From Bdellovibrionales bacterium (lineage in GTDB: Bacteria > Bdellovibrionota > Bdellovibrionia > Bdellovibrionales > UBA1609), in NCBI GenBank assembly GCA_050246815.1, contig JBFWVI010000049.1:1-20451 (forward strand): DNA of 20,451 nucleotides, read 5' to 3'. Shown piece by piece: positions 1,773 to 20,047 of the stretch. How positions within the stretch are numbered: the first letter of the stretch is position 1; each line of letters begins with the position of its first letter. Position numbers and translations under genes: made by a program. The notes under the pieces were generated by a model that was not told the origin of the DNA, ran no database searches, and saw nothing but the letters and a program-made list of their open reading frames with translations.

Positions 1773-2381
1773 TTAGACGCGGTCTCCAACTTGAATATAA
1801 ATATGCGGCCTTGAGCTCTTGGTGGCAGGGTATGGGCAATCCGGTGAGCTCCAGCTTAGGGGGGGGGGGGGCCCGAGTTCGTCTTGTTGTTTAGTGATCG
1901 TTGAAAGATGTGGGAGGGGAGTGTAAAAGCCAGCCACGGCTAAAACCGCGGCTGGAACTAAAACTAAGTCACTTACATTTTTGGTAATTTTCTTAATCGC
2001 CTCTCGGCTTCTCCAAAGCGCAAGGTCAATTACATTCTCCTTCTCGCCCTTAGGTCCTTTCGGGAATACTCTCTGGGGTATCAATGTCAGGTCGGCTGTA
2101 TTGAGAAGTCCTACAATCTTTACCTCCTCCCAGCAATACCACGATAAAACGCTACGCCATTCATCGTTGGCTACAAGGAAGTACTCAAGTCCGCTTGTGC
2201 ACACCAACTTGTATTCAGAGCTTCGAGTGGCACTCACTTCCTTATCCCAAGGCACGACTACGCCAGAAAGTGTGACGGGTGTCAGGACGTTTTTGGAGTA
2301 ACCCCTCGATGGTTTCTCCAAAGGGTGGTTTGGTTCTACTTTTTCTCCCTTCATTTTTTTGAAAGTTAAAAGCGATTTCAT
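1773..2381 (-). CDS. Hypothetical protein with a possible OB-fold-like beta domain; last gene of the HPF-like operon
   Basis: GGAGG SD at 2389-2393, 7 nt before ATG 2381. Pattern VTLSGVV...EYFLV...EEVKIVGLL, then a hydrophobic stretch LVLVPAAVLAVAGF. The C-terminal tail crosses a G13 run and looks non-native. Confidence 0.7.
   Translation of the reverse strand: MKSLLTFKKMKGEKVEPNHPLEKPSRGYSKNVLTPVTLSGVVVPWDKEVSATRSSEYKLVCTSGLEYFLVANDEWRSVLSWYCWEEVKIVGLLNTADLTLIPQRVFPKGPKGEKENVIDLALWRSREAIKKITKNVSDLVLVPAAVLAVAGFYTPLPHLSTITKQQDELGPPPPLSWSSPDCPYPATKSSRPHIYIQVGDRV
1859..1871. repeat. G13 homopolymer tract (C13 on the coding strand, encoding poly-Pro)
   Basis: Seen directly: tta-G13-cccgag. Confidence 0.95.
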
Positions 2382-2398
2382 AACGATACCTCCCAATT

Positions 2399-2749
2399 TT
2401 AGCCCGCCATAGCCAACAAATCAGGGTTATTACTTAAGTCAGACTTCCTAGAGACGGGCCGACCGCCAGAGTGCTTCCACGCTTTTAGGCACTCCCGTTT
2501 TACTCTTGCGTACAGATTTTCTAACACTTGAGTCAGTGACGGACCCCTCTTGTAGACCCCAATCGGAACGTCGTTCGCCTTGCTCCAAAGCAGTCCTTCA
2601 TAAACATGGCCGCATTTTAAAAGCCGCATACTAACGTCCGAGGACGGCGAGATGGCCTTTATTGCCGTCACGATCTGACGGATCTTTTCTTCCGCATCGT
2701 GGTTAATACCGACGCCGTCGTTGTAAATTGTTGCGCCCGCTAAAACCAT
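2399..2749 (-). CDS. HPF/RaiA-like small protein, copy 3 (most divergent; 116 aa)
   Basis: GAGGAGGT SD before ATG 2749. Predicted beta-alpha-beta-beta-beta-alpha pattern. The ISPSSDVSMRL segment parallels RSPSDSAIKMAM in copy 1, and the C-terminal helix is basic (YARVKRECLKAWKH). Confidence 0.55.
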   Translation of the reverse strand: MVLAGATIYNDGVGINHDAEEKIRQIVTAIKAISPSSDVSMRLLKCGHVYEGLLWSKANDVPIGVYKRGPSLTQVLENLYARVKRECLKAWKHSGGRPVSRKSDLSNNPDLLAMAG

Positions 2750-2765
2750 AAGACCTCCTCTCTGC

Positions 2766-3119
2766 TTAGGAAGCAAATTGCTCCCTCCAAAATTGTTTTT
2801 TTCGGTAACAAATTCGTTTCTTACTTATTCTATGCACCTGTCTCAAAATCCCTTTGCGAACCTTTCTTAAAACGGCCATTACATTTTTGCCTTCTTTGCT
2901 GATGACAATTGGCTCGCCAAGACCATAGACGCTCATTGAAACCGAAAACAAATGTTTGTCTTTGGCCTCGGGCTCAATGTGCACTTGAACATCGGTATCC
3001 CAGCCGGACTGCGACTTGATTTCTTTTACAATGTGGTCAGCATATTGCTTAACCGCCTCAGTCTGAGTTAAGTCCTTAGCTTGAAACTCATACATCAATT
3101 CTTGGTTCATAAAACTCAT
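2766..3119 (-). CDS. HPF/RaiA (ribosomal S30AE-family) ribosome-associated protein, copy 2 (117 aa)
   Basis: YEFQAKDLTQTEAVKQYADHIVKEI resembles the HPF N-terminus (I.I.GKN.E.TEAL..Y...KL.KL). IVISKEGKNVMAVLRKVRKGILRQVHRISKK resembles the HPF last strand and helix (..DMYAAID....KLERQL.K.K.K). ATGA overlap with the upstream gene. Confidence 0.75.
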   Translation of the reverse strand: MSFMNQELMYEFQAKDLTQTEAVKQYADHIVKEIKSQSGWDTDVQVHIEPEAKDKHLFSVSMSVYGLGEPIVISKEGKNVMAVLRKVRKGILRQVHRISKKRICYRKKQFWREQFAS

Positions 3120-3445
3120 ACGTACTCCTCGACAGTAATTTGCGATTCATCATTCAGAAAGCGACGACTCTTCCAGCGGTCCAATTGGTCAGCGATTTTC
3201 TTTTCGACCTTCTTAATGGCCTTAATTGGGTTATCACTGATAGCTTCAGCGGCAAATATTCCAGCATGAGATACAACACGACAAGACGCCTGAACAGCGC
3301 CTTTACTTAACTTCATTGCCATCTTAATCGCGGAATCGCTGGGCGAACGAAGGTGTAATCTCTCTGCGACGGTCGAGATGAAGCTTTTCACTTCGTATTC
3401 GGGATCAAATCCTACAAATTCAAATTGCACACAATCGTTGTGCAT
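3116..3445 (-). CDS. HPF/RaiA-like small protein, copy 1 (109 aa)
   Basis: AAGGAGG SD before ATG 3445. VQFEFVGFDPEYEVKSFISTVAERL ... GIFAAEAISDNPIKAIKKVEKKIADQLDRWK matches the HPF-fold pattern (A.A.SED...AI......L..QL). Confidence 0.7.
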   Translation of the reverse strand: MHNDCVQFEFVGFDPEYEVKSFISTVAERLHLRSPSDSAIKMAMKLSKGAVQASCRVVSHAGIFAAEAISDNPIKAIKKVEKKIADQLDRWKSRRFLNDESQITVEEYV

Positions 3446-3545
3446 AGCCCCTCCTTTCAACGTGGCTATTACGCTGTCGCAAATATTCATCAAGATGGAA
3501 CTGCACCAGCTCAACGAAAATTGTAAGTTGTAACGTTTGGGTTTA

Positions 3546-3581
3546 TTACCGGCGCCGGTTGGGTGGGATACCTGATCTCAC
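3546..3581 (-). CDS. Putative 11-aa leader peptide MRSGIPPNRRR
   Basis: AAAGGAGGT SD (3595-3587), 5-nt spacer, GTG start at 3581, tandem TAA TAA stops. Lies between a promoter candidate and the first HPF-like gene. Confidence 0.55.
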   Translation of the reverse strand: MRSGIPPNRRR

Positions 3582-3666
3582 TTTGTACCTCCTTTAATAC
3601 GTCCAGGGCACGCATCAGAGTAAAGAAGCTACATTTGTTTGCAAAAGCCCTGTTGTTTCCAACCTA

Positions 3667-3694
3667 ATTTTGTAGTCGGTAAAAAAAATGTCAA
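3667..3694 (-). promoter_or_regulatory. Promoter candidate for the leader/HPF-like operon (TTGACA-N16-CAAAAT)
   Basis: Perfect TTGACA at 3694-3689 and CAAAAT at 3672-3667, downstream of the Hsp20 terminator. Confidence 0.5.
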
Positions 3695-3768
3695 GTGACC
3701 ATGGTTCCAAAACTGGACCATTTTAAAAATCCTAGAAATTTCAAAAATTTAATGTGCGATGTAAAGAG

Positions 3769-3802
3769 AAGGGCGGAGTCTCAAGTTGAGACAACCGCCC
3801 TT
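3769..3802 (-). terminator. Rho-independent terminator of the Hsp20 gene
   Basis: AAGGGCGG / CCGCCCTT stem enclosing GTCTCAA-G-TTGAGAC, followed on the minus strand by CTCTTT. A second hairpin ATCTTGC-TTAC-GCAAGAT lies at 3807-3824. Confidence 0.75.
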
Positions 3803-3837
3803 GAGGATCTTGCTTACGCAAGATTTTTAATGGGTGC

Positions 3838-4386
3838 CTAGGATACCTTTACGTCCTTCAACTCTTTGGTCCCTTCTTTTTTGGAGCCCAAGAGTTTGCC
3901 AAAGAAACTGTTCTGACCGCTTTGGATTTGAATAGTTCTTCCTTTGGCGACTTCGGCTTTAGGGAGGGCGACATTCAATACACCATTTTCATAGTGCGCT
4001 TCGATCTTTTCAGCGTTGACGGTAGTCGGTAATGTGAAAGTTCGCTCGAACTTGCCATAGGCTCGCTCGTGTCGAAGAGTGGCCTCGCCATCTTCTTCTT
4101 TCATTTCGTATTGTCTTTCGCCCGAAATAACCAGTTGGTTATTTTGAACTTCGATTTTAATGTCCTCTTTTTTTACGCCAGGCATATCAAAGCTCACGAG
4201 GTAATAATCCTTAGTTTTTTTGATGTCGCAGCTAGGTTGAAAATTGACCGTACTTGCGTAGGCGGGCCGCAGAAAGCTATTCACAATTCGGTCAAAATCA
4301 TCAAAGAGATCTCCCATAACAATGTCGGGAGATAGGCCGCGACGTGACCACGCCCAGTCTGGGGTAAACGGACTTAACATTCTCAT
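3838..4386 (-). CDS. Hsp20/alpha-crystallin small heat-shock protein (182 aa)
   Basis: Motifs PSCDI..., DMPGVKKEDIKIEV, ERAYGKFERTFTLP and AHYENGVLNVALPK. AGGAGGT SD before ATG 4386. Confidence 0.97.
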   Translation of the reverse strand: MRMLSPFTPDWAWSRRGLSPDIVMGDLFDDFDRIVNSFLRPAYASTVNFQPSCDIKKTKDYYLVSFDMPGVKKEDIKIEVQNNQLVISGERQYEMKEEDGEATLRHERAYGKFERTFTLPTTVNAEKIEAHYENGVLNVALPKAEVAKGRTIQIQSGQNSFFGKLLGSKKEGTKELKDVKVS

Positions 4387-4441
4387 TGTGTACCTCCTAT
4401 GGTTAAGGGTCATTGGTTTCATAAAAATTACTTCTAATCAA

Positions 4442-4469
4442 AAAATGTGTGGTCCGCAAAATCTGTCAA
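4442..4469 (-). promoter_or_regulatory. Hsp20 promoter candidate (TTGACA-N16-CATTTT)
   Basis: CTTGACA at 4470-4464 and CACACATTTT ending at 4442. An inverted repeat AGACA-N8-TGTCT sits just upstream at 4477-4494. Confidence 0.5.
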
Positions 4470-4689
4470 GACGGCAAGACAAAATTTTCTGTCTCATCCT
4501 TTGATCCTCGCGAATTTCAAAACAATTTTATCCTTATCTGTTGGATACTCCTTTGTTTGTTGATGATATCGTCTGCCTCCAAATTGCTCTGCTTTTTTTG
4601 CCGAAAGATGGATTTACTTTTTGTGGCGTCAAGTTCCGCACAAAATAGGTCTAAAAAATCTAGTGGTTTTGAATATTTGTGTCGGCCAC

Positions 4690-4720
4690 TTGACAAAAAT
4701 ATTTTGAAAATCATTTTTTG
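4690..4720 (+). promoter_or_regulatory. Divergent promoter candidate (TTGACA-N16-CATTTT) overlapped by a Fur-box-like site
   Basis: TTGACA at 4690-4695 and CATTTT at 4712-4717. TTGAAAATCATTTT at 4704-4717 resembles the WTGAAAATNATTTTCAW Fur motif described for deltaproteobacteria. Confidence 0.45.
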
Positions 4721-4793
4721 AAATAGGTTGATATTAGGTCCGTTTAGGATTCGGAGCTGAAGCTTCGCATTTTGAAAGGAGGTGATATTTGCC

Positions 4794-5015
4794 ATGCAAG
4801 CGGCCTTTAAAAACGCTAACGCCTACCCGCAAGATAAAATTTCTGACCATCTGAACTCCCTCGAAACTCAGCTCAAGGAGTTATGGTCACAGTATGTAAA
4901 GCGTCTTGATGAAAATGGATTTGACGAGATGGCACGTTCGTTGAGGGATAGGTACTTCAATATTTATCGTAGTTATCGACACAACAAGAAATGGAGAGAA
5001 ATTATGAACAATTAA
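4794..5015 (+). CDS. Small helical hypothetical protein (73 aa)
   Basis: AAGGAGGTG SD at 4776-4784 and ATG at 4794. Amphipathic, coiled-coil-like sequence. Confidence 0.75.
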   Translation: MQAAFKNANAYPQDKISDHLNSLETQLKELWSQYVKRLDENGFDEMARSLRDRYFNIYRSYRHNKKWREIMNN

Positions 5016-5032
5016 AAAACAGGAGGTGCGCT

Positions 5033-5371
5033 ATGACAGCCTTGGTTTTTGATAAAATCAAGTTTGATCTTACCCCGATCAAAATATTTCTTTCAATCGC
5101 GGCTATTTACCTCGCGTGCATGACCAGCATCGCGTCGGTTATGCCGAAGGTATCTACACTTGAACCGTCGTTTGAGCCTTTGATGGCGAGTGACCTTAAT
5201 TCTTGTCCGGTTCCATACTCAACCGAGTCTTGCAGCAGCGGAACGATCGGCAAATGCGAAACTGAAAGTTTATGGCCTCAGGTGTTGAATAGATATTCAT
5301 GGCAAAACACCAGTTCGCGGCCGATATGCCCACATTCAAATGCGTCAAAAAGTCAGAATAGCGAATCTTGA
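5033..5371 (+). CDS. Hypothetical single-TM protein with a Cys-containing C-terminal region (112 aa)
   Basis: AGGAGGTG SD at 5021-5028 and ATG at 5033. Hydrophobic segment IFLSIAAIYLACMTSIASV, followed by four more Cys. Confidence 0.7.
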   Translation: MTALVFDKIKFDLTPIKIFLSIAAIYLACMTSIASVMPKVSTLEPSFEPLMASDLNSCPVPYSTESCSSGTIGKCETESLWPQVLNRYSWQNTSSRPICPHSNASKSQNSES

Positions 5372-5415: not shown

Positions 5416-5667
5416 TGCGCCTTGCGCTTCAGGGGCAATTGACATAGGATTTTGTTACGTCACGGGGGCGCGACGTTTGGGTCCGACAATCGGAACTCCG
5501 CCTCCATCATCTACGGAACCTGGAAATGATTTTCAGATTTTGCAGTGTTGTGGTACGAGGAAGTAAAGTTCAGAAGGTCTGAGCCGTTCTCTGAATGGAA
5601 AGACTACGAAACAAATGCTCACGGTTTCAATTCCAAAAGATCGTCAAATTAGGAGAATCGAAAAATT

Positions 5668-6264
5668 ATGGGAGCGAATCTGCAAGCCTTGCTAGAGGAA
5701 ATCCGAGACTTGGAAATGTCTGTCGTAGAGCAGATTAAGCAAAAAGAGGAAGATCTTCTTTATAGTATAAAAAATCGAACTGTTGTTTTCCGGAAAGAGA
5801 TCATCGAAAAACACAAGGCTCTCCGTAAAAGTGTTTATAGATTTTTGGTCGAATCATCTTCTATGTCCTATGTGGTCGCTCCGGTCATATACTCCATGAT
5901 CATTCCTGCATTAATTATGGATATTTTTGTCTCAGTCTATCAGAGGATATGTTTTCCTGTTTATGGGATACCTAAGGTGAAGCGAAATGATTACATTGTC
6001 CTAGACCGAAATCGGCTTAAATATTTAAATTGGATCGAAAGAATCAATTGCGACTATTGCGGTTACTTTAACGGGCTTATTTCCTATGTTCGTGAGGTGG
6101 CATCACGAACCGAACAGTATTTCTGTCCTATTCGGCATGCATTAAAGGTCAAAGGACTCCACATAAGACACGCTAGGTTCTTAAGGTACGGCGAGGTAGA
6201 TAATTATAGAGAGAGACTCGCTCAACTTAGAAAGGAAGTGCGTGAAACCGCATTAGAAGTTTAG
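5668..6264 (+). CDS. Conserved hypothetical membrane protein with CxxC and CPIxH motifs
   Basis: AGGAG SD, N-terminal coiled coil, TM segment APVIYSMIIPALIMDIFVSVY, then CFPVYGIPKV, NCDYCGYFNG and RTEQYFCPIRHA. Confidence 0.85.
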   Translation: MGANLQALLEEIRDLEMSVVEQIKQKEEDLLYSIKNRTVVFRKEIIEKHKALRKSVYRFLVESSSMSYVVAPVIYSMIIPALIMDIFVSVYQRICFPVYGIPKVKRNDYIVLDRNRLKYLNWIERINCDYCGYFNGLISYVREVASRTEQYFCPIRHALKVKGLHIRHARFLRYGEVDNYRERLAQLRKEVRETALEV

Positions 6265-6726
6265 AATCGCGGAACATGATTTTTCACGATCTAGCTTCTG
6301 ACAGAAGGGGAGAGAAAATATAAAAAAATTGAACGCCATTGTTCTCGCCCGCAGCCGACTCTTTCAGTCGTACCCCGTGCTCGCGCGGCAAGCTTTCTGT
6401 GAATGCGGCGAGGGACTCCGTGTTCAACCACGTAGTTTACGCGCAGCTTGAGGCCTTGAGTCGCGATCGCGTTTGCTAAAATCTGAAAGTTCGGCCAGGA
6501 CGGCTGTCGATAGGGCAGGGCCTCGCCGCGCACGAAACAACGGGCTTGCGCACTGATAGTTGTCCATCTTGGATTCCGCGAATTGCGATGCGTTAGTGGT
6601 AACTGCCCCATGCGGGTTCGGCTATACCGCTTTGCACAAGTACACCGAGTTTTTCAACGAACTAGGAGCCAGTACCGAAGACCTAAGTCCGGTTCAGCTT
6701 GAAGGTCTGAGAAAAAAGGAGAGATT

Positions 6727-9677: not shown

Positions 9678-11129
9678 CTATTCTGGAATAATCCACCAGA
9701 AGGGCAATGCTTTCGCCTTGTAGATAAAGGCATAGTGAAGAATTTTTTTTATCCAGTGTCCGGCGGCACCGATTTCACCGGTGGTATGAACCAGGCTACG
9801 CCCGACGCCAGGATATTTTTTGAGGTCAGGCACAATTGGATACATGGTCATCGAAGCGGCGCCACCGCGAAAGGCATTCGCGCCCGCTGAGGCGACACAG
9901 GCGGCACCCAACTCACTCATAGAGGCGGCATATGTCGGCGCTTTTGAGATACCATTAATCATATCGACAATTGAATTGGCTACAATGCGTCCCATGACAG
10001 CCGAGGGCATGCCCGTGCGTGGCGGAGCCGGAGCAATAGGCGTTCCATTTTTGCTTACCCGCGGTTTTGAAATCTGGTGGGGGGGCGCAAATGCGATGCC
10101 GATGGCAAAAACATTCTTATAAGAAGTTTGATATGTTTTTGGCCAATCTTCCGGAGACCATTTTTCATAGGGCTTACCCGAGTAGTCGGCATCGACCTTC
10201 ATAAAGCCGGAAGGGTTAAAAAGGCGAGCCGAGATATCTTCGCCGTTTTGGGCATAGGCCTTTAGCGGCACGCCAGTAAAGGGAGGCAGCAACATTGCAA
10301 AGTCAAACTGCAGTTCGCCGCGCTCGCCGTCTAAGGTTTCATATTCCAGTCGGCCCTGTTCAACTTTATGAATATGGGCCCCTGTTACCCAATCAATGTC
10401 CCTTTCGACATACAATGATTCGGCGAACACTTTACTTGGAGTGACAAATCCGCCCACCTTCATCTGTAGTCCGCCGACACCAAAATCGCCAAGTTCGGCT
10501 TCGTTGGTGATAAAAATCAAGCGGGCCTTGTCGCGCACGCCCTGTTGGCGCAGTTCAAACTCAAGATTGAAAATGTATTCGAAGGCCGCACCTTCACATG
10601 TGCACAGGCCATGGCCTGTGCCGACCACAAATGTTTTGGTGGCGCCCTCTTTCATTTGTGCGATTACTTTTTTGAGTTCGGATGCAGTTGAAGTGGCATG
10701 GTCCACTGTGCAGACGGAGTGTGTGAAGCCTTCGGGGCCAAGGCCGGGTGTCGCAGCAAAATTAAGCCGGGGACCGGTTGCATTGACAAGAAAGTCATAT
10801 TCTATGCGAAGTGTGCTTTTGTCAGCACTTTCGCCGGTTGAATCGGCCAAAACAAACGGCGCTGATGAGGTCGCATCCCCTTCGGGGTGAATCTGAGTTG
10901 CTTTAGCCTGATGAAAGGTGATGCCGGCGCGTTTGTAGACCTTTTGTAAATCGAAGGTCACTTCGTCGGCGGTCATGTCGCCAACGCCGACCCAAATGTT
11001 CGATGGTATCCAGTTCCACTTTTGATTTGGGCTTACGACAACAACTTCATGCTGGCGCCCCAATTTGCGGCGCAACAGCAGCGCCGCGGTATGCCCAGAT
11101 ATTCCGGCCCCAAGCACCACAACTCTCAT
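9678..11129 (-). CDS. sqr: Sulfide:quinone oxidoreductase (FAD-dependent)
   Basis: GAGISG FAD motif, WIPSNIWVGVG, YDFLVNATG, SVCT, CTCEGAAFEY, PPRTGMPS and AACVAS. All three SQR-type cysteine positions are present. Confidence 0.9.
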   Translation of the reverse strand: MRVVVLGAGISGHTAALLLRRKLGRQHEVVVVSPNQKWNWIPSNIWVGVGDMTADEVTFDLQKVYKRAGITFHQAKATQIHPEGDATSSAPFVLADSTGESADKSTLRIEYDFLVNATGPRLNFAATPGLGPEGFTHSVCTVDHATSTASELKKVIAQMKEGATKTFVVGTGHGLCTCEGAAFEYIFNLEFELRQQGVRDKARLIFITNEAELGDFGVGGLQMKVGGFVTPSKVFAESLYVERDIDWVTGAHIHKVEQGRLEYETLDGERGELQFDFAMLLPPFTGVPLKAYAQNGEDISARLFNPSGFMKVDADYSGKPYEKWSPEDWPKTYQTSYKNVFAIGIAFAPPHQISKPRVSKNGTPIAPAPPRTGMPSAVMGRIVANSIVDMINGISKAPTYAASMSELGAACVASAGANAFRGGAASMTMYPIVPDLKKYPGVGRSLVHTTGEIGAAGHWIKKILHYAFIYKAKALPFWWIIPE

Positions 11130-11145
11130 AGAAGCCCCCTCACTT

Positions 11146-12219
11146 TTACTCGTTAATTAAGGTGGTTCCTGCCGTTTCTGGCAGGCGAGGCATTGTTTGT
11201 TTCGGAAACTCACCATTTAATGTTTTTAGAAAGGCAACGACTTTGTCGATGTCGGGCTGTGAAAGATCTTTTGCCAGCTGCAGCTTTGCCATTATTCGAA
11301 CGGCTTCACTTAAGTCACTTACTTTTCCATTATGAAAGTAGGGGGCTGTTAAAGCTATGTTTCGTAGAGTGGGAACAGCATACATATTTCTGTCGGCCGC
11401 ATTTTTTGTCACATCGGCGCGGCCAAGATCTTTTTGAAAGCCGTATTTTTTTTCGATATCAGTATCCGGAGTGACCGGAAACTTTTGATAAAACCCGGTG
11501 CCGACGGGGAGGGCTGGACCAGCAAAGTTGATCCCGTTGTGGCAGGCCACGCATCCGGTTGTTTTGAAGGTTTCAAAACCTGCGAGTTCCTGAGCGGTAA
11601 TCGCCGTTTTTTTGCCTTTGAGATATTGGTCAAAGCGACTGTTGGGGGTAATTAATGTTCGCTCATACGCGGCTATTGCCTTTACCGCATTGTCGATATG
11701 AATTGCATCATTGCCGCCGAATACCTTTTTGAATGCGGCAATGTAGCCAGGAATATTTCGAATTCGTTCGATCGCCACCGCATGATTGTCCATGCCCATT
11801 TCAACGGGGTTAACAATTGGCCCTTTTGCCTGCTCTTCAAGCGTGGCCGCACGACCATCCCAAAATTGGACAGATTTAAATGCCGCATTCCAAACGGTCG
11901 GCGAGTTGCGGCCACCAAGTTGACCTTTAATGCCGACAGAAAGTGAGCGATTGTCGTCACCGCCCGCCATCACGTTGTGACAGGAGTTACATGAAATTGC
12001 TCCTGACTTCGAAAGACGTGGATCGAAGTAAAGTTGCTTGCCCAGTTCAATTTTATCCGAGGTCATCGGGTTGTCGGCGGGGGTGGGCGCCTTCAGCGGC
12101 AATGCTTGTTGAGCAAAACTGCGATAAGCGGGCAGAAGCACAAACAAAGCAATCACTAAAAAAACGTGCCCTTTTATTTTAATTCTATTTTTACGCGTTA
12201 TAACTAATGTTAGTTTCAT
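11146..12219 (-). CDS. Di-heme cytochrome c peroxidase (CcpA/MauG family)
   Basis: Signal peptide, LGKQLYFDPRLS, CNSCH, RNSPTVWNA, QFWDGRA, NPVEM, CVACH and VPTLRNIALTAPYFHNG. Confidence 0.96.
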   Translation of the reverse strand: MKLTLVITRKNRIKIKGHVFLVIALFVLLPAYRSFAQQALPLKAPTPADNPMTSDKIELGKQLYFDPRLSKSGAISCNSCHNVMAGGDDNRSLSVGIKGQLGGRNSPTVWNAAFKSVQFWDGRAATLEEQAKGPIVNPVEMGMDNHAVAIERIRNIPGYIAAFKKVFGGNDAIHIDNAVKAIAAYERTLITPNSRFDQYLKGKKTAITAQELAGFETFKTTGCVACHNGINFAGPALPVGTGFYQKFPVTPDTDIEKKYGFQKDLGRADVTKNAADRNMYAVPTLRNIALTAPYFHNGKVSDLSEAVRIMAKLQLAKDLSQPDIDKVVAFLKTLNGEFPKQTMPRLPETAGTTLINE

Positions 12220-12527
12220 CTGCAGTACTCCGATTGAATGGTTTGCATCATATTCACAAGTCGTTTGTCAGCCAAAGAATACACGCTGTATTTTCCGCTT
12301 CTTTCAGACTTAATTAGCCCTTCGACTTTCATGCGGGTTAAAAACTGTGACATTTGACTTTGCGAGATGTCGCACAAATTCAACAAATCGCCAACCGTTT
12401 TGGGCCCGCGCAAAAGATGCCCTAAGATCAGCAGTCTTTGAGGGTGAGAAAGTGCCTTTAATATTTGACAGACGGCCTCACACGACCTTTTGATTTTGAC
12501 GACGGAAACCTGTGCAGCCTGGGCCAA
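12216..12527 (-). CDS. ArsR family repressor, BigR/SqrR/HlyU-like
   Basis: LKALSHPQRLLIL...SQSQMSQFL..M..EGL, with C-terminal YC. The AGGAGG SD at 12539-12534 is spaced for TTG 12527 rather than GTG 12533. ATGA overlap with the peroxidase gene. Confidence 0.92.
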   Translation of the reverse strand: MAQAAQVSVVKIKRSCEAVCQILKALSHPQRLLILGHLLRGPKTVGDLLNLCDISQSQMSQFLTRMKVEGLIKSERSGKYSVYSLADKRLVNMMQTIQSEYCR

Positions 12528-12558
12528 CGGCACCCTCCTTGAGCTAGCAGTTCGACTC

Positions 12559-18184: not shown

Positions 18185-18616
18185 TCACTTCTCTTTCTTC
18201 TGAGTCTCGGTTTTTGTATTTTCCGGCAAAGGCGTTGTCGAGTTTGGTGCCTTCTTTGCGGAGCATTGAAATCCGGCCTCTTCAAGTTTTTGCTGAATTT
18301 TATCGCGTACGTTTTCGCAGTGCACCTTGGCCAGAGAAGAAGAGGCGACAGGGTCCGTGCTGCTATGATTGGAGTAATAAAGCAAACAACCTTTGGGCTG
18401 AGGATTTTCAATTCTTAGCGTACGAGATTCTTGGTTTCGACTGCAGGTGATCTCATCTTTTGTCGATTCCGCTTTAGCCTTATCTGGTAATGTCTGCGAA
18501 TTTGCCGATGGCGTGGACGCGGTCTGCTTGGGTGCGGCCGGTGAGTTTTTCTGTTTGCTAGAGCAGGCGACAATCATGACCGTGCATGCCCCAATTAGTA
18601 TAAAATTTATGCGCAT
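18185..18616 (-). CDS. Lipoprotein with a four-Cys C-terminal domain (143 aa)
   Basis: GGGAGG SD, ATG 18616, lipobox IVAC-SS, Pro/Ala/Ser/Thr linker, then C...RTL....GC...Y...C.....KL..AGF.C. Confidence 0.85.
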   Translation of the reverse strand: MRINFILIGACTVMIVACSSKQKNSPAAPKQTASTPSANSQTLPDKAKAESTKDEITCSRNQESRTLRIENPQPKGCLLYYSNHSSTDPVASSSLAKVHCENVRDKIQQKLEEAGFQCSAKKAPNSTTPLPENTKTETQKKEK

Positions 18617-19785
18617 TCTGAACCTCCCTTTTGTGTATTTGGTTTCTTTGTTTTGCTTTCTATCCATTTTGGTTTGTCGGTCCGTAACTCATCGATCAAC
18701 GCGTCCATAACAGGATGAAAGTTTTTACTCGATTGGCGATAAATGCTTCTTTGGCGATCCGCGCTTGACCCCTTCGCCATGATTTGTCTTAGAGTTTCCA
18801 TTTGCGGAGCATAATCATTAACCTCGATCAGAGGAGAAAGATCTTTTAGGACTTTATCTAAGTACTCCGCCATTTTTTTTGTTTCTCCTGCTGTATCGAC
18901 GATCAAATCTGCGTCAATGCCTTTGTTCATGGCACGCCATTTGTTTTCGCGTAGCAGCCAAAATGGAGGCGGATAAGAGTCACCCTTAAGGGCGAGATTT
19001 TGATCAATTTTCTGGCAAAGCAGGTGAACTAAAGCGACAATGGCTTCGGTTTCTTGAATTGTCGCAGGTGAGTCACAAACCCTGATTTCAATTGTGCCCA
19101 AGCTTGGATTGGGGCGGATATCCCACCAAAGATCTTTAGGGCCGTCGATGGCGTGGGACTGTTTCAATTTTTCATACATTGTCAAAAAGTCTGACCAGCA
19201 TTCGAATGTGCAGGGCTGGCCAGCGGTTGGGATCGCTTCAAAAAAAGATGTTCTTGCTGAGGCAAGTTGCGTATCTTCAGAACGGCAAAACGGCGAACTG
19301 GCAGATAAAGACAAAAGTAAAGGCGTGTAATGAAGAAGAGAATTTGCGACCTGAATGCTATGTTGACCGCTACGCATACCAACATGGATGTGAAGGCCGA
19401 AAATAAGTAAACGTCTTGTCAGCCATTGATTTTTTTTGAGCAATCTTCTGTACCTAGCATCCGGATACAAAATTTCGTTTTCGTATTGTGCATAGGGGTG
19501 TGTTCCGGCTGAAGCTAAAGACAAGTTCAATTTACTGCAGACAGTGTATAGTTTTGCCAGGGCTTCGCGAAAGTCGCCGCCAATCTGCTGAGCATTTTGA
19601 CATATGCCTGTCGTAATTTCGATCATGCTTTGATAAAGCTCCGCTTTCACGGAGTCGGTTGAACCCAGCAGCTGTAGCACTTTGGGTGAAGATGAGCTTA
19701 AATTATTGCTGCCACTTTCAAGCAATTGAAGTTCAAGCTCAGCACCTAGGGTGAGCGACGACGATGGCTCAAAGGGTAAGGGCAG
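18607..19785 (-). CDS. ybdK: YbdK-family carboxylate-amine ligase (glutamate-cysteine ligase GCS2)
   Basis: TLGAELELQL, SMIEITTG, AGTHP, FGLHIHVG, LSASSPF, WWDIRP, GTIEIRVCD and ENKWRA. Start placed at CTG 19785 from the SD and the family N-terminus; the ORF track extends to TTG 19878. Confidence 0.92.
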   Translation of the reverse strand: MPLPFEPSSSLTLGAELELQLLESGSNNLSSSSPKVLQLLGSTDSVKAELYQSMIEITTGICQNAQQIGGDFREALAKLYTVCSKLNLSLASAGTHPYAQYENEILYPDARYRRLLKKNQWLTRRLLIFGLHIHVGMRSGQHSIQVANSLLHYTPLLLSLSASSPFCRSEDTQLASARTSFFEAIPTAGQPCTFECWSDFLTMYEKLKQSHAIDGPKDLWWDIRPNPSLGTIEIRVCDSPATIQETEAIVALVHLLCQKIDQNLALKGDSYPPPFWLLRENKWRAMNKGIDADLIVDTAGETKKMAEYLDKVLKDLSPLIEVNDYAPQMETLRQIMAKGSSADRQRSIYRQSSKNFHPVMDALIDELRTDKPKWIESKTKKPNTQKGGSECA

Positions 19786-20047
19786 AAATCCTCCTGCAAT
19801 CAAGCGTGCGCCTAAGTATCTTAGGTCACATGGCGTAAAATCATGAATAGCGGCCTTCAAATAGAATGAAGCACCCAAGTCGTCGTCGCAACGCGGACTT
19901 ATTCTGCGTATTAGTATGGTGCCGCCCGGGTTATTGTTGTAATATCAACGCCTTATGACGAAAATTAAGTCGGAGATAAATTTAAATTTATCCTCAGTTC
20001 AGATAATTCAGGATGTGTTTTCTCCTATCATTTCTGTATTACCTAAA

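Follow-up and report, generated by a model that had tools for sequence, protein, structure and literature searches.

A 20,451-nucleotide stretch of a Bdellovibrionales genome (contig JBFWVI010000049.1, positions 1 to 20,451 of the forward strand; hereafter the window) carries on its minus strand a cluster in which three small proteins of the hibernation-promoting factor (HPF) fold, encoded by genes A, B and C, are followed by an OB-fold-like protein (gene D) and preceded by a conserved, very short leader open reading frame (ORF). We propose that the cluster is an accessory operon whose leader likely senses slowed translation and whose products are predicted ribosome shields, a reading to which, as a whole, we assign a probability of about 0.4. 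The reality of the leader and the HPF fold of the proteins are much firmer than the signal that the leader reads or the target of the proteins. The original prediction, made from the DNA letters of the window, described four co-oriented ORFs, and this layout is confirmed: A and B overlap by ATGA, and the remaining gaps are 16 and 17 nt.

A, B and C belong to the HPF fold superfamily and are not canonical HPF. A and B exceed the gathering cut-off of PF02482 only narrowly (24.9 versus 23.7 bits), and gene C has no PF02482 match at E≤1. The A and B profiles match each other with a probability of 95.6; the A profile also matches HI0257 (E 1.6e-4), and the B profile matches solved HPF/RaiA chains (E 4e-4). 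For C the assignment comes from a structural model, which matches HPF/RaiA structures in Foldseek and ends in a tail of low-confidence coil. An HPF-like fold for all three, as originally proposed, is thus upheld, by profile matches to solved HPF/RaiA chains for A and B and by model and Foldseek for C; so is the lack of the C-terminal dimerisation domain of long HPF, as the proteins are 109-117 aa long and give no such Pfam hit. The three are deeply divergent from one another, and the A subfamily, which is lineage-wide, is marked by the motifs P-S-x-S and QL-x-x-W. One further protein, P0158 (567 aa), matches the C profile nine times (positions 55-77), and is either a repeat protein or an artefact.

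As ribosome shields, at least one of A, B and C would bind the decoding channel of the 30S subunit in the manner of HPF, separately from the canonical hpf product and partly redundantly with it, and we lean slightly towards this view. Staphylococcus aureus HPF has four basic residues on two helices (K27, R30, K84 and R87); double mutants still bound ribosomes, and the quadruple mutant alone did not (PMC4889938, in the part of the report available). At the corresponding columns, which were assigned by motif and partly from recall, and with which a joint alignment agrees, K or R is found in 16, 16, 16 and 14 of 16 rpoN-linked copies, in 22, 0, 23 and 2 of 27 A proteins, in 0, 1, 4 and 16 of 19 B proteins, and in 0, 1, 34 and 34 of 36 C proteins; that is, two of the four basic sites are retained in A, one in B and two in C. 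Several observations weigh against ribosome binding. Charge is reversed, to D or E, at the R87 site in 18 of the 27 A proteins and at the K27 site in 14 of the 19 B proteins; of the three proteins, for which a very basic final helix had been described, only B (+7) and C (+5) carry a net basic charge, and A is neutral; and on TIGR00741, the HPF/YfiA equivalog model, C does not score at all, and A with 15 bits and B with 19.2 bits stay far below the cut-off of 40.9 bits. Because the S. aureus double mutants bound and the quadruple mutant did not, ribosome binding of A, B and C is neither implied nor excluded by these losses, and it is, judged from the residues, uncertain.

The loss or reversal of two to three of the four conserved basic sites in each subfamily would also suit an arrangement in which the leader is a real translation sensor while in A, B and C the HPF fold has been repurposed to bind RNAs or proteins other than the ribosome, for instance in two-component signalling. 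In the same genome (contig C17, L041:3807-4541) an A-type domain is fused before a domain that we take, from its motif, to be receiver-like, among two-component genes, and this fusion hints at non-ribosomal roles, a further point against a ribosomal target. A-type or A-B genes also stand beside genes that we presume from motifs to be response-regulator-like in L040, L043 and L075, and Foldseek with the C model lists a double-stranded RNA-binding Dicer chain, more weakly (rank 36). The best structural and profile matches, however, are all ribosome hibernation factors, the second helices of B and C remain basic, and A-type genes persist where PF02482 finds nothing, as a replacement would, and we consider repurposing unlikely. 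Should A, B and C not bind ribosomes, the HPF fold would have been put to another use.

Among the 109 genomes of the family scan, the A profile matches 73 and PF02482 matches 74; gene B is found in 16 by single-protein search and in 35 by profile, the latter figure including cross-hits to canonical HPF; and C and D are present in 8 and 5, respectively. Adjacent, intact A-B-C is found in 3 of these genomes and, overall, in six loci of Bdellovibrionota-type genomes (the window, L003, L005, L025, L117 and L118), of which L117 and L118 come from another family; five of the loci have A-B-C-D in fixed order with tight gaps and the sixth has A-B-C, while L115 carries a decayed A. Conservation of the cluster in other genomes, on which the original prediction depended, is supported, and both partial forms and deletion fusions are common.

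Genes A-D are under purifying selection: the proportions of nonsynonymous and synonymous differences are 0.10-0.29 (pN) versus 0.56-0.88 (pS), and for 3 of the 8 pairs, those unsaturated enough for dS to be estimated, the ratio of the corresponding rates (dN/dS) is 0.04-0.20. These dN/dS values already largely refute the notion that the duplicated hpf genes are an array in decay and without function, to which the deep divergence of A, B and C and the conservation, in two families, of the promoter, the 5' region and the leader are also opposed. A broken gene E in the window, deletion fusions of C with D and of D with E in relatives, and the patchy spread of C and D would be in keeping with such decay, which we nevertheless hold to be very improbable.

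The genome from which the window comes contains about 8 HPF-fold domains. A short canonical hpf stands behind rpoN on contig C27, and A-B-C are located away from rpoN; there are also a second A-B pair, a lone A-type gene and the A-type domain fused to the receiver-like domain. Outside this genome, A-type genes occur in genera in which PF02482 has no hit at E≤0.01 (an absence that may reflect a miss by the first-look filter): they are found in 15 of 15 genomes of g29, 3 of 4 of g30 and 7 of 10 of g18, all of them small (1.2-2.5 Mb; for example L055, L061-L066 and L078-L081). In these genera they are candidates for a hidden HPF replacement, and the A-type subfamily bears on how bacteria seemingly without HPF store their ribosomes.

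Alignment of the gap between Hsp20 and gene A reveals a conserved block, absent from the original prediction, that consists of a perfect Shine-Dalgarno (SD) sequence, a GTG start and 11 codons. Twenty such leaders were collected: 12 through protein homology, 6 through a DNA pattern in metagenomes, and 2 through the pattern in 401 genomes of the phylum, where it had four matches, two of them already known. They share the consensus M-x(1-4)-[ST]-G-[IV]-P-P-N-x-x-R-stop. In each of the eight pattern-only loci the leader is followed by A, B, C or D, and in all 20 it stands ahead of whichever cluster gene comes first. The leaders are 11-13 codons long and differ by whole codons, and the distance from the proline pair to the stop is 4 codons in 17 of the 20. 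Over the six core codons of the 12 homology-found loci, differences number 98, 44 and 233 at codon positions 1, 2 and 3, and the final residue is Arg in 7 of these 12. The block has the marks of a ribosome-dependent leader: a conserved short ORF with an SD, constrained at the level of the peptide and placed upstream of an operon.

The proline pair as such is weaker as a signature, and three points count against its importance: leaders were selected by requiring it; of the 115 short ORFs that follow GGAGG in this genome, 13 have it as well; and when 52 more distant loci were scanned under relaxed conditions, 4 gave a proline-pair leader, three of which had already been counted. Since that scan gave so few, most A-type genes are without a proline-pair leader, and the leader is, as far as the sequences tell, a property of the close cluster and not of A-type genes generally. 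The second A-B pair of the same genome (L026:7916-8702, contig C17) has a diverged leader, MKPTLNAPPEHTE, with its own anti-SD complement. At L054:3788-3838, an unrelated short ORF with three prolines, MMKCFCRFNLPPPVRL, precedes a lone A-type gene.

Upstream of the leader, 16 of the 20 loci could be aligned, three divergent loci and one truncated locus being omitted. RNAalifold places an anti-SD helix over the leader's own SD; 96% of its cells are paired, and 7 of its 11 pairs vary on one side. The SD is paired upstream at P≥0.9 in 9 of 16 leaders versus 8 of 72 control genes. In L003 and L004 the best fold is formed by another conserved complement, CAGGGC/GCCCUG, which could represent an alternative state or a pseudoknot. 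Other results tell against such a structure: only 1 of the 11 pairs shows a two-sided change, mean SD pairing is 0.77 in leaders and, in control genes too, 0.56, and the 226-nt leader region is no more stable than its shuffles (z -0.54). The promoter, the 5' region and the leader are, on alignment, conserved across two families. In the promoter scan that gave the site at 3694 the total hit count is at chance level, and TTGAC recurs at a similar upstream distance in the leader loci with enough flank.

Such a 5' region, with its two alternative helices, could in principle act alone, the anti-SD structure being switched by a ligand or protein while the peptide acts in trans or merely holds a ribosome whatever its sequence. 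In L117/L118, L026 and L046 the anti-SD and SD arms change in length in a compensating way, as seen by eye, which would be consistent with control by RNA only. The S/T-G-I/V-P-P-N core, on the other hand, is constrained as a peptide with free third positions, and its distance to the stop is fixed; the best Rfam covariance-model match (E 0.6) lies off the leader and far under the gathering score; and the computed helix stays closed to 55 C, unlike a simple thermometer. We therefore judge RNA-only control to be quite unlikely.

Downstream of the leader, the 40 nt after its stop have a C:G ratio of 153:94 (1.63), with C exceeding G in 17 of 20 loci, against a ratio of 1.02 and 48% of 1246 gene ends in the control; it counts against this signal that it is drawn from related loci. 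Terminator scan and alignment reveal no conserved intrinsic terminator in the spacer between leader and gene A. Both rho and efp are present in this genome.

In the operon that we favour, the leader is very probably translated, with its start gated by the anti-SD helix and its alternative pairing. A ribosome lingering at G-I-P-P-N-x-x-R-stop, when elongation factor P (EF-P), prolyl-tRNA or ribosome activity is short, would then rather likely control the downstream genes; PPN has served as an EF-P-rescued stall motif in other work (bioRxiv 10.1101/2024.04.15.589488, in the text available). More tentatively, the lingering ribosome may cover the C-rich Rho loading site and so allow transcription to reach A-D, as MgtL controls mgtA through Rho access (PMC12856214, as far as the available text describes it), and the direction of control could be reversed. 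A bolder version, in which stalling on the GIPPN leader switches on specialised HPF paralogues and A-type proteins, which largely escape Pfam, are the working hibernation factor of Bdellovibrionota genera seemingly without HPF, we regard as doubtful.

Two known kinds of leader invite comparison, each judged from the available parts of its literature. Like the leader of the window, MgtL is a short proline-bearing upstream ORF with a C-rich spacer, in a setting of rho and efp; the window leader differs in its sequence (GIPPN-x-x-R-stop), has an additional anti-SD helix on its own start and precedes HPF-fold genes, and its Rho dependence is a candidate feature. In vmlR and similar ribosome-protection genes attenuated by an upstream ORF, too, a leader that responds to ribosome state controls a ribosome-associated factor (PMC9226507), but scan and alignment gave no conserved intrinsic terminator for the spacer of the window leader, and the targets have the HPF fold and are not ABC-F proteins.

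The original prediction coupled the triplet to Hsp20 and suggested a hetero-oligomer. Hsp20 is a frequent neighbour of the cluster, and the coupling is loose: it lies upstream in 7 of the 20 leader loci and was not found in 9 of the 16 that have enough flank, 4 loci being too short to judge. In the window 392 nt separate it from gene A, with the promoter-like site (3694) and the leader in between, and it is probably transcribed separately from A-D. An inverted repeat with a T-rich tail lies 3' of Hsp20 in 4 aligned loci; it is absent from the list of the terminator scan.

A fixed assembly is not backed by the gene patterns either, as members occur without the others: leader loci carry B with a short-chain dehydrogenase gene, C alone, A-C, B-C-D, B-D or B-E. 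Partial deletion of the A-B-C row is frequent and speaks against an obligate trimer. It is thus improbable that A, B, C (and D) form an obligate hetero-oligomer working with Hsp20, even though the A-B-C-D order with tight gaps in five loci (A-B-C in the sixth), the loss of different basic sites in each subfamily and the upstream Hsp20 in 7 of 20 loci could be read in its favour; the incomplete sets, the loci from which Hsp20 is missing and the separate promoter-like site between Hsp20 and leader are all contrary to it.

For gene D an OB-like fold had been suggested, and the agreement is weak: its model has a predicted local distance difference test score (pLDDT) of 70.7 and a predicted template modelling score (pTM) of 0.55, and the top Foldseek rows are all OB domains with a probability of about 1.0, yet with E values no better than 0.024, so that there is no PDB match at E≤0.001. 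Atlas structure rows for D name DUF5818 (template modelling score 0.54 by query), whereas no Pfam DUF5818 hit is found in any of the 66 D members scanned. In all, 71 relatives of D were found. They mostly stop at about 150-156 aa, and the end at 1773 that had been given for gene D is therefore not meaningful: the last 50 residues of D in the window are an out-of-frame read-through into the broken gene E. This tail crosses a G run (1859-1871) of uncertain length, and the contigs of each of the two source runs are interrupted there; D translated from another database copy across the same run is 174 aa. Queried with gene E of L003, tblastn finds the remnant in two segments, 1909-1760 and 1863-1729, and gene E is intact in L003, L114 and L115.

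Hibernation factors are known to be under stress-transcription control, and a leader that reads the speed of ribosomes and gates hibernation-type proteins would, if true, be a new feedback loop. In literature searches, which left most subscription papers outside their coverage, we found no account of the cluster, just as the original prediction knew of no description of such a triplet, and none of a leader ORF before hpf-type genes or of feedback through one. From short HPF/RaiA (YfiA; PF02482, TIGR00741), A-C differ in falling under the equivalog cut-off, in the absence from each of 2-3 of the 4 basic residues, and in forming a tandem of three that is joined by OB-like genes and lies at a distance from rpoN, the canonical rpoN-linked copy being separate. 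Extra HPF copies are known. According to the available text of Chan et al. (bioRxiv 10.1101/2025.11.04.686544), nearly a third of bacteria have multiple hpf copies, and chimeric copies occur beside the canonical one; RafH is a hypoxia-induced second HPF (PMC10799931, in the part available). The earlier expectation of one or two copies per genome is accordingly an understatement, in general and for this genome. Non-canonical copies of this kind (RafH/Rv0079 and the Csp-, SigE- and CBS-HPF chimeras), as far as the available sources describe them, resemble A-C in coexisting with canonical HPF, in their variable location and in their ties to stress genes, and the pattern of Chan et al. also accommodates additional, movable copies of hpf next to a short canonical HPF; A-C differ as stand-alone tandem domains that are not chimeras, and no leader ORF is described in that part of Chan et al. 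The words 'Bdellovibrio' and 'tandem' are absent from the main text of Chan et al., and Bdellovibrio is not mentioned in the available parts of PMC13728122 or PMC11102965. No printed description was found of three such genes in tandem behind a conserved leader with a proline pair.

Table 1. Features of the HPF-fold cluster and its surroundings in the window
Feature	Position	Strand	Basis or occurrence
Hsp20 small heat-shock gene	3838-4386	minus	PF00011, E 4e-29
Promoter candidate, sigma-70 type (TTGACA, T-run, AAAAT)	3667-3694	minus	scan score 10/12
Conserved structured 5' region: anti-SD segment and alternative CAGGGC/GCCCUG helix	3582-3660	minus	16-locus alignment
Leader ORF, GTG start, MRSGIPPNRRR	3546-3581	minus	seen in 20 loci
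Spacer between leader and gene A; first 40 nt C-rich and G-poor (candidate Rho loading site)	3446-3545	minus
Gene A, HPF fold, 109 aa	3116-3445	minus	PF02482, 24.9 bits
Gene B, HPF fold, basic second helix, 117 aa	2766-3119	minus	PF02482, 24.9 bits
Gene C, HPF fold, no family hit, 116 aa	2399-2749	minus	model and Foldseek
Gene D, conserved 150-aa part: OB-fold-like core (residues 33-107) and C-terminal helix	1932-2381	minus
Gene E remnant, frameshifted (paralogue of D)	1729-1931	minus	tblastn of L003 gene E
Gene F, small, divergent	4794-5015	plus	beside module in L003, L005, L008, L042
Gene G, divergent, hydrophobic N-terminus, after F	5033-5371	plus	L003, L005, L008, L042

Beyond Hsp20, relatives have a second, divergent Hsp20-like gene upstream (L003:2330-3016; L042:3271-3930); in the window, at about 4400-4620, the alignment breaks at the start of this gene, which, by comparison with those loci, seems to have been deleted. 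The divergent genes F and G, neither of which has a Pfam family above cut-off, accompany the module together with a divergent promoter-like site and a conserved 5' region (window 4691-5371, plus strand), and gene F has a dN/dS of 0.12. A short-chain dehydrogenase gene is often the last gene of the cluster or its neighbour (L003, L025, L027, L043, L050, L052, L114 and L115); it is absent from the window.

Unrelated contigs in two runs contain a match to a 35-nt stretch at 1619-1656, and a look-alike motif can be seen by eye near 5470; the motifs at 1619-1656 and about 5460-5490 bracket the module and might be the ends of an element. Near two copies of the cluster are ORFs that, from their motifs, we take to be transposase-like (L003:568-1611; L025:3968-4801 and 6108-6476). 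Farther along the window, the minus-strand regions 9678-12533 and 18607-19878 include what are presumably ArsR-like, cytochrome c peroxidase-like and sulfide:quinone reductase-like genes, as well as a GCS2 ligase gene (PF04107), all of which we regard as ordinary accessory genes.

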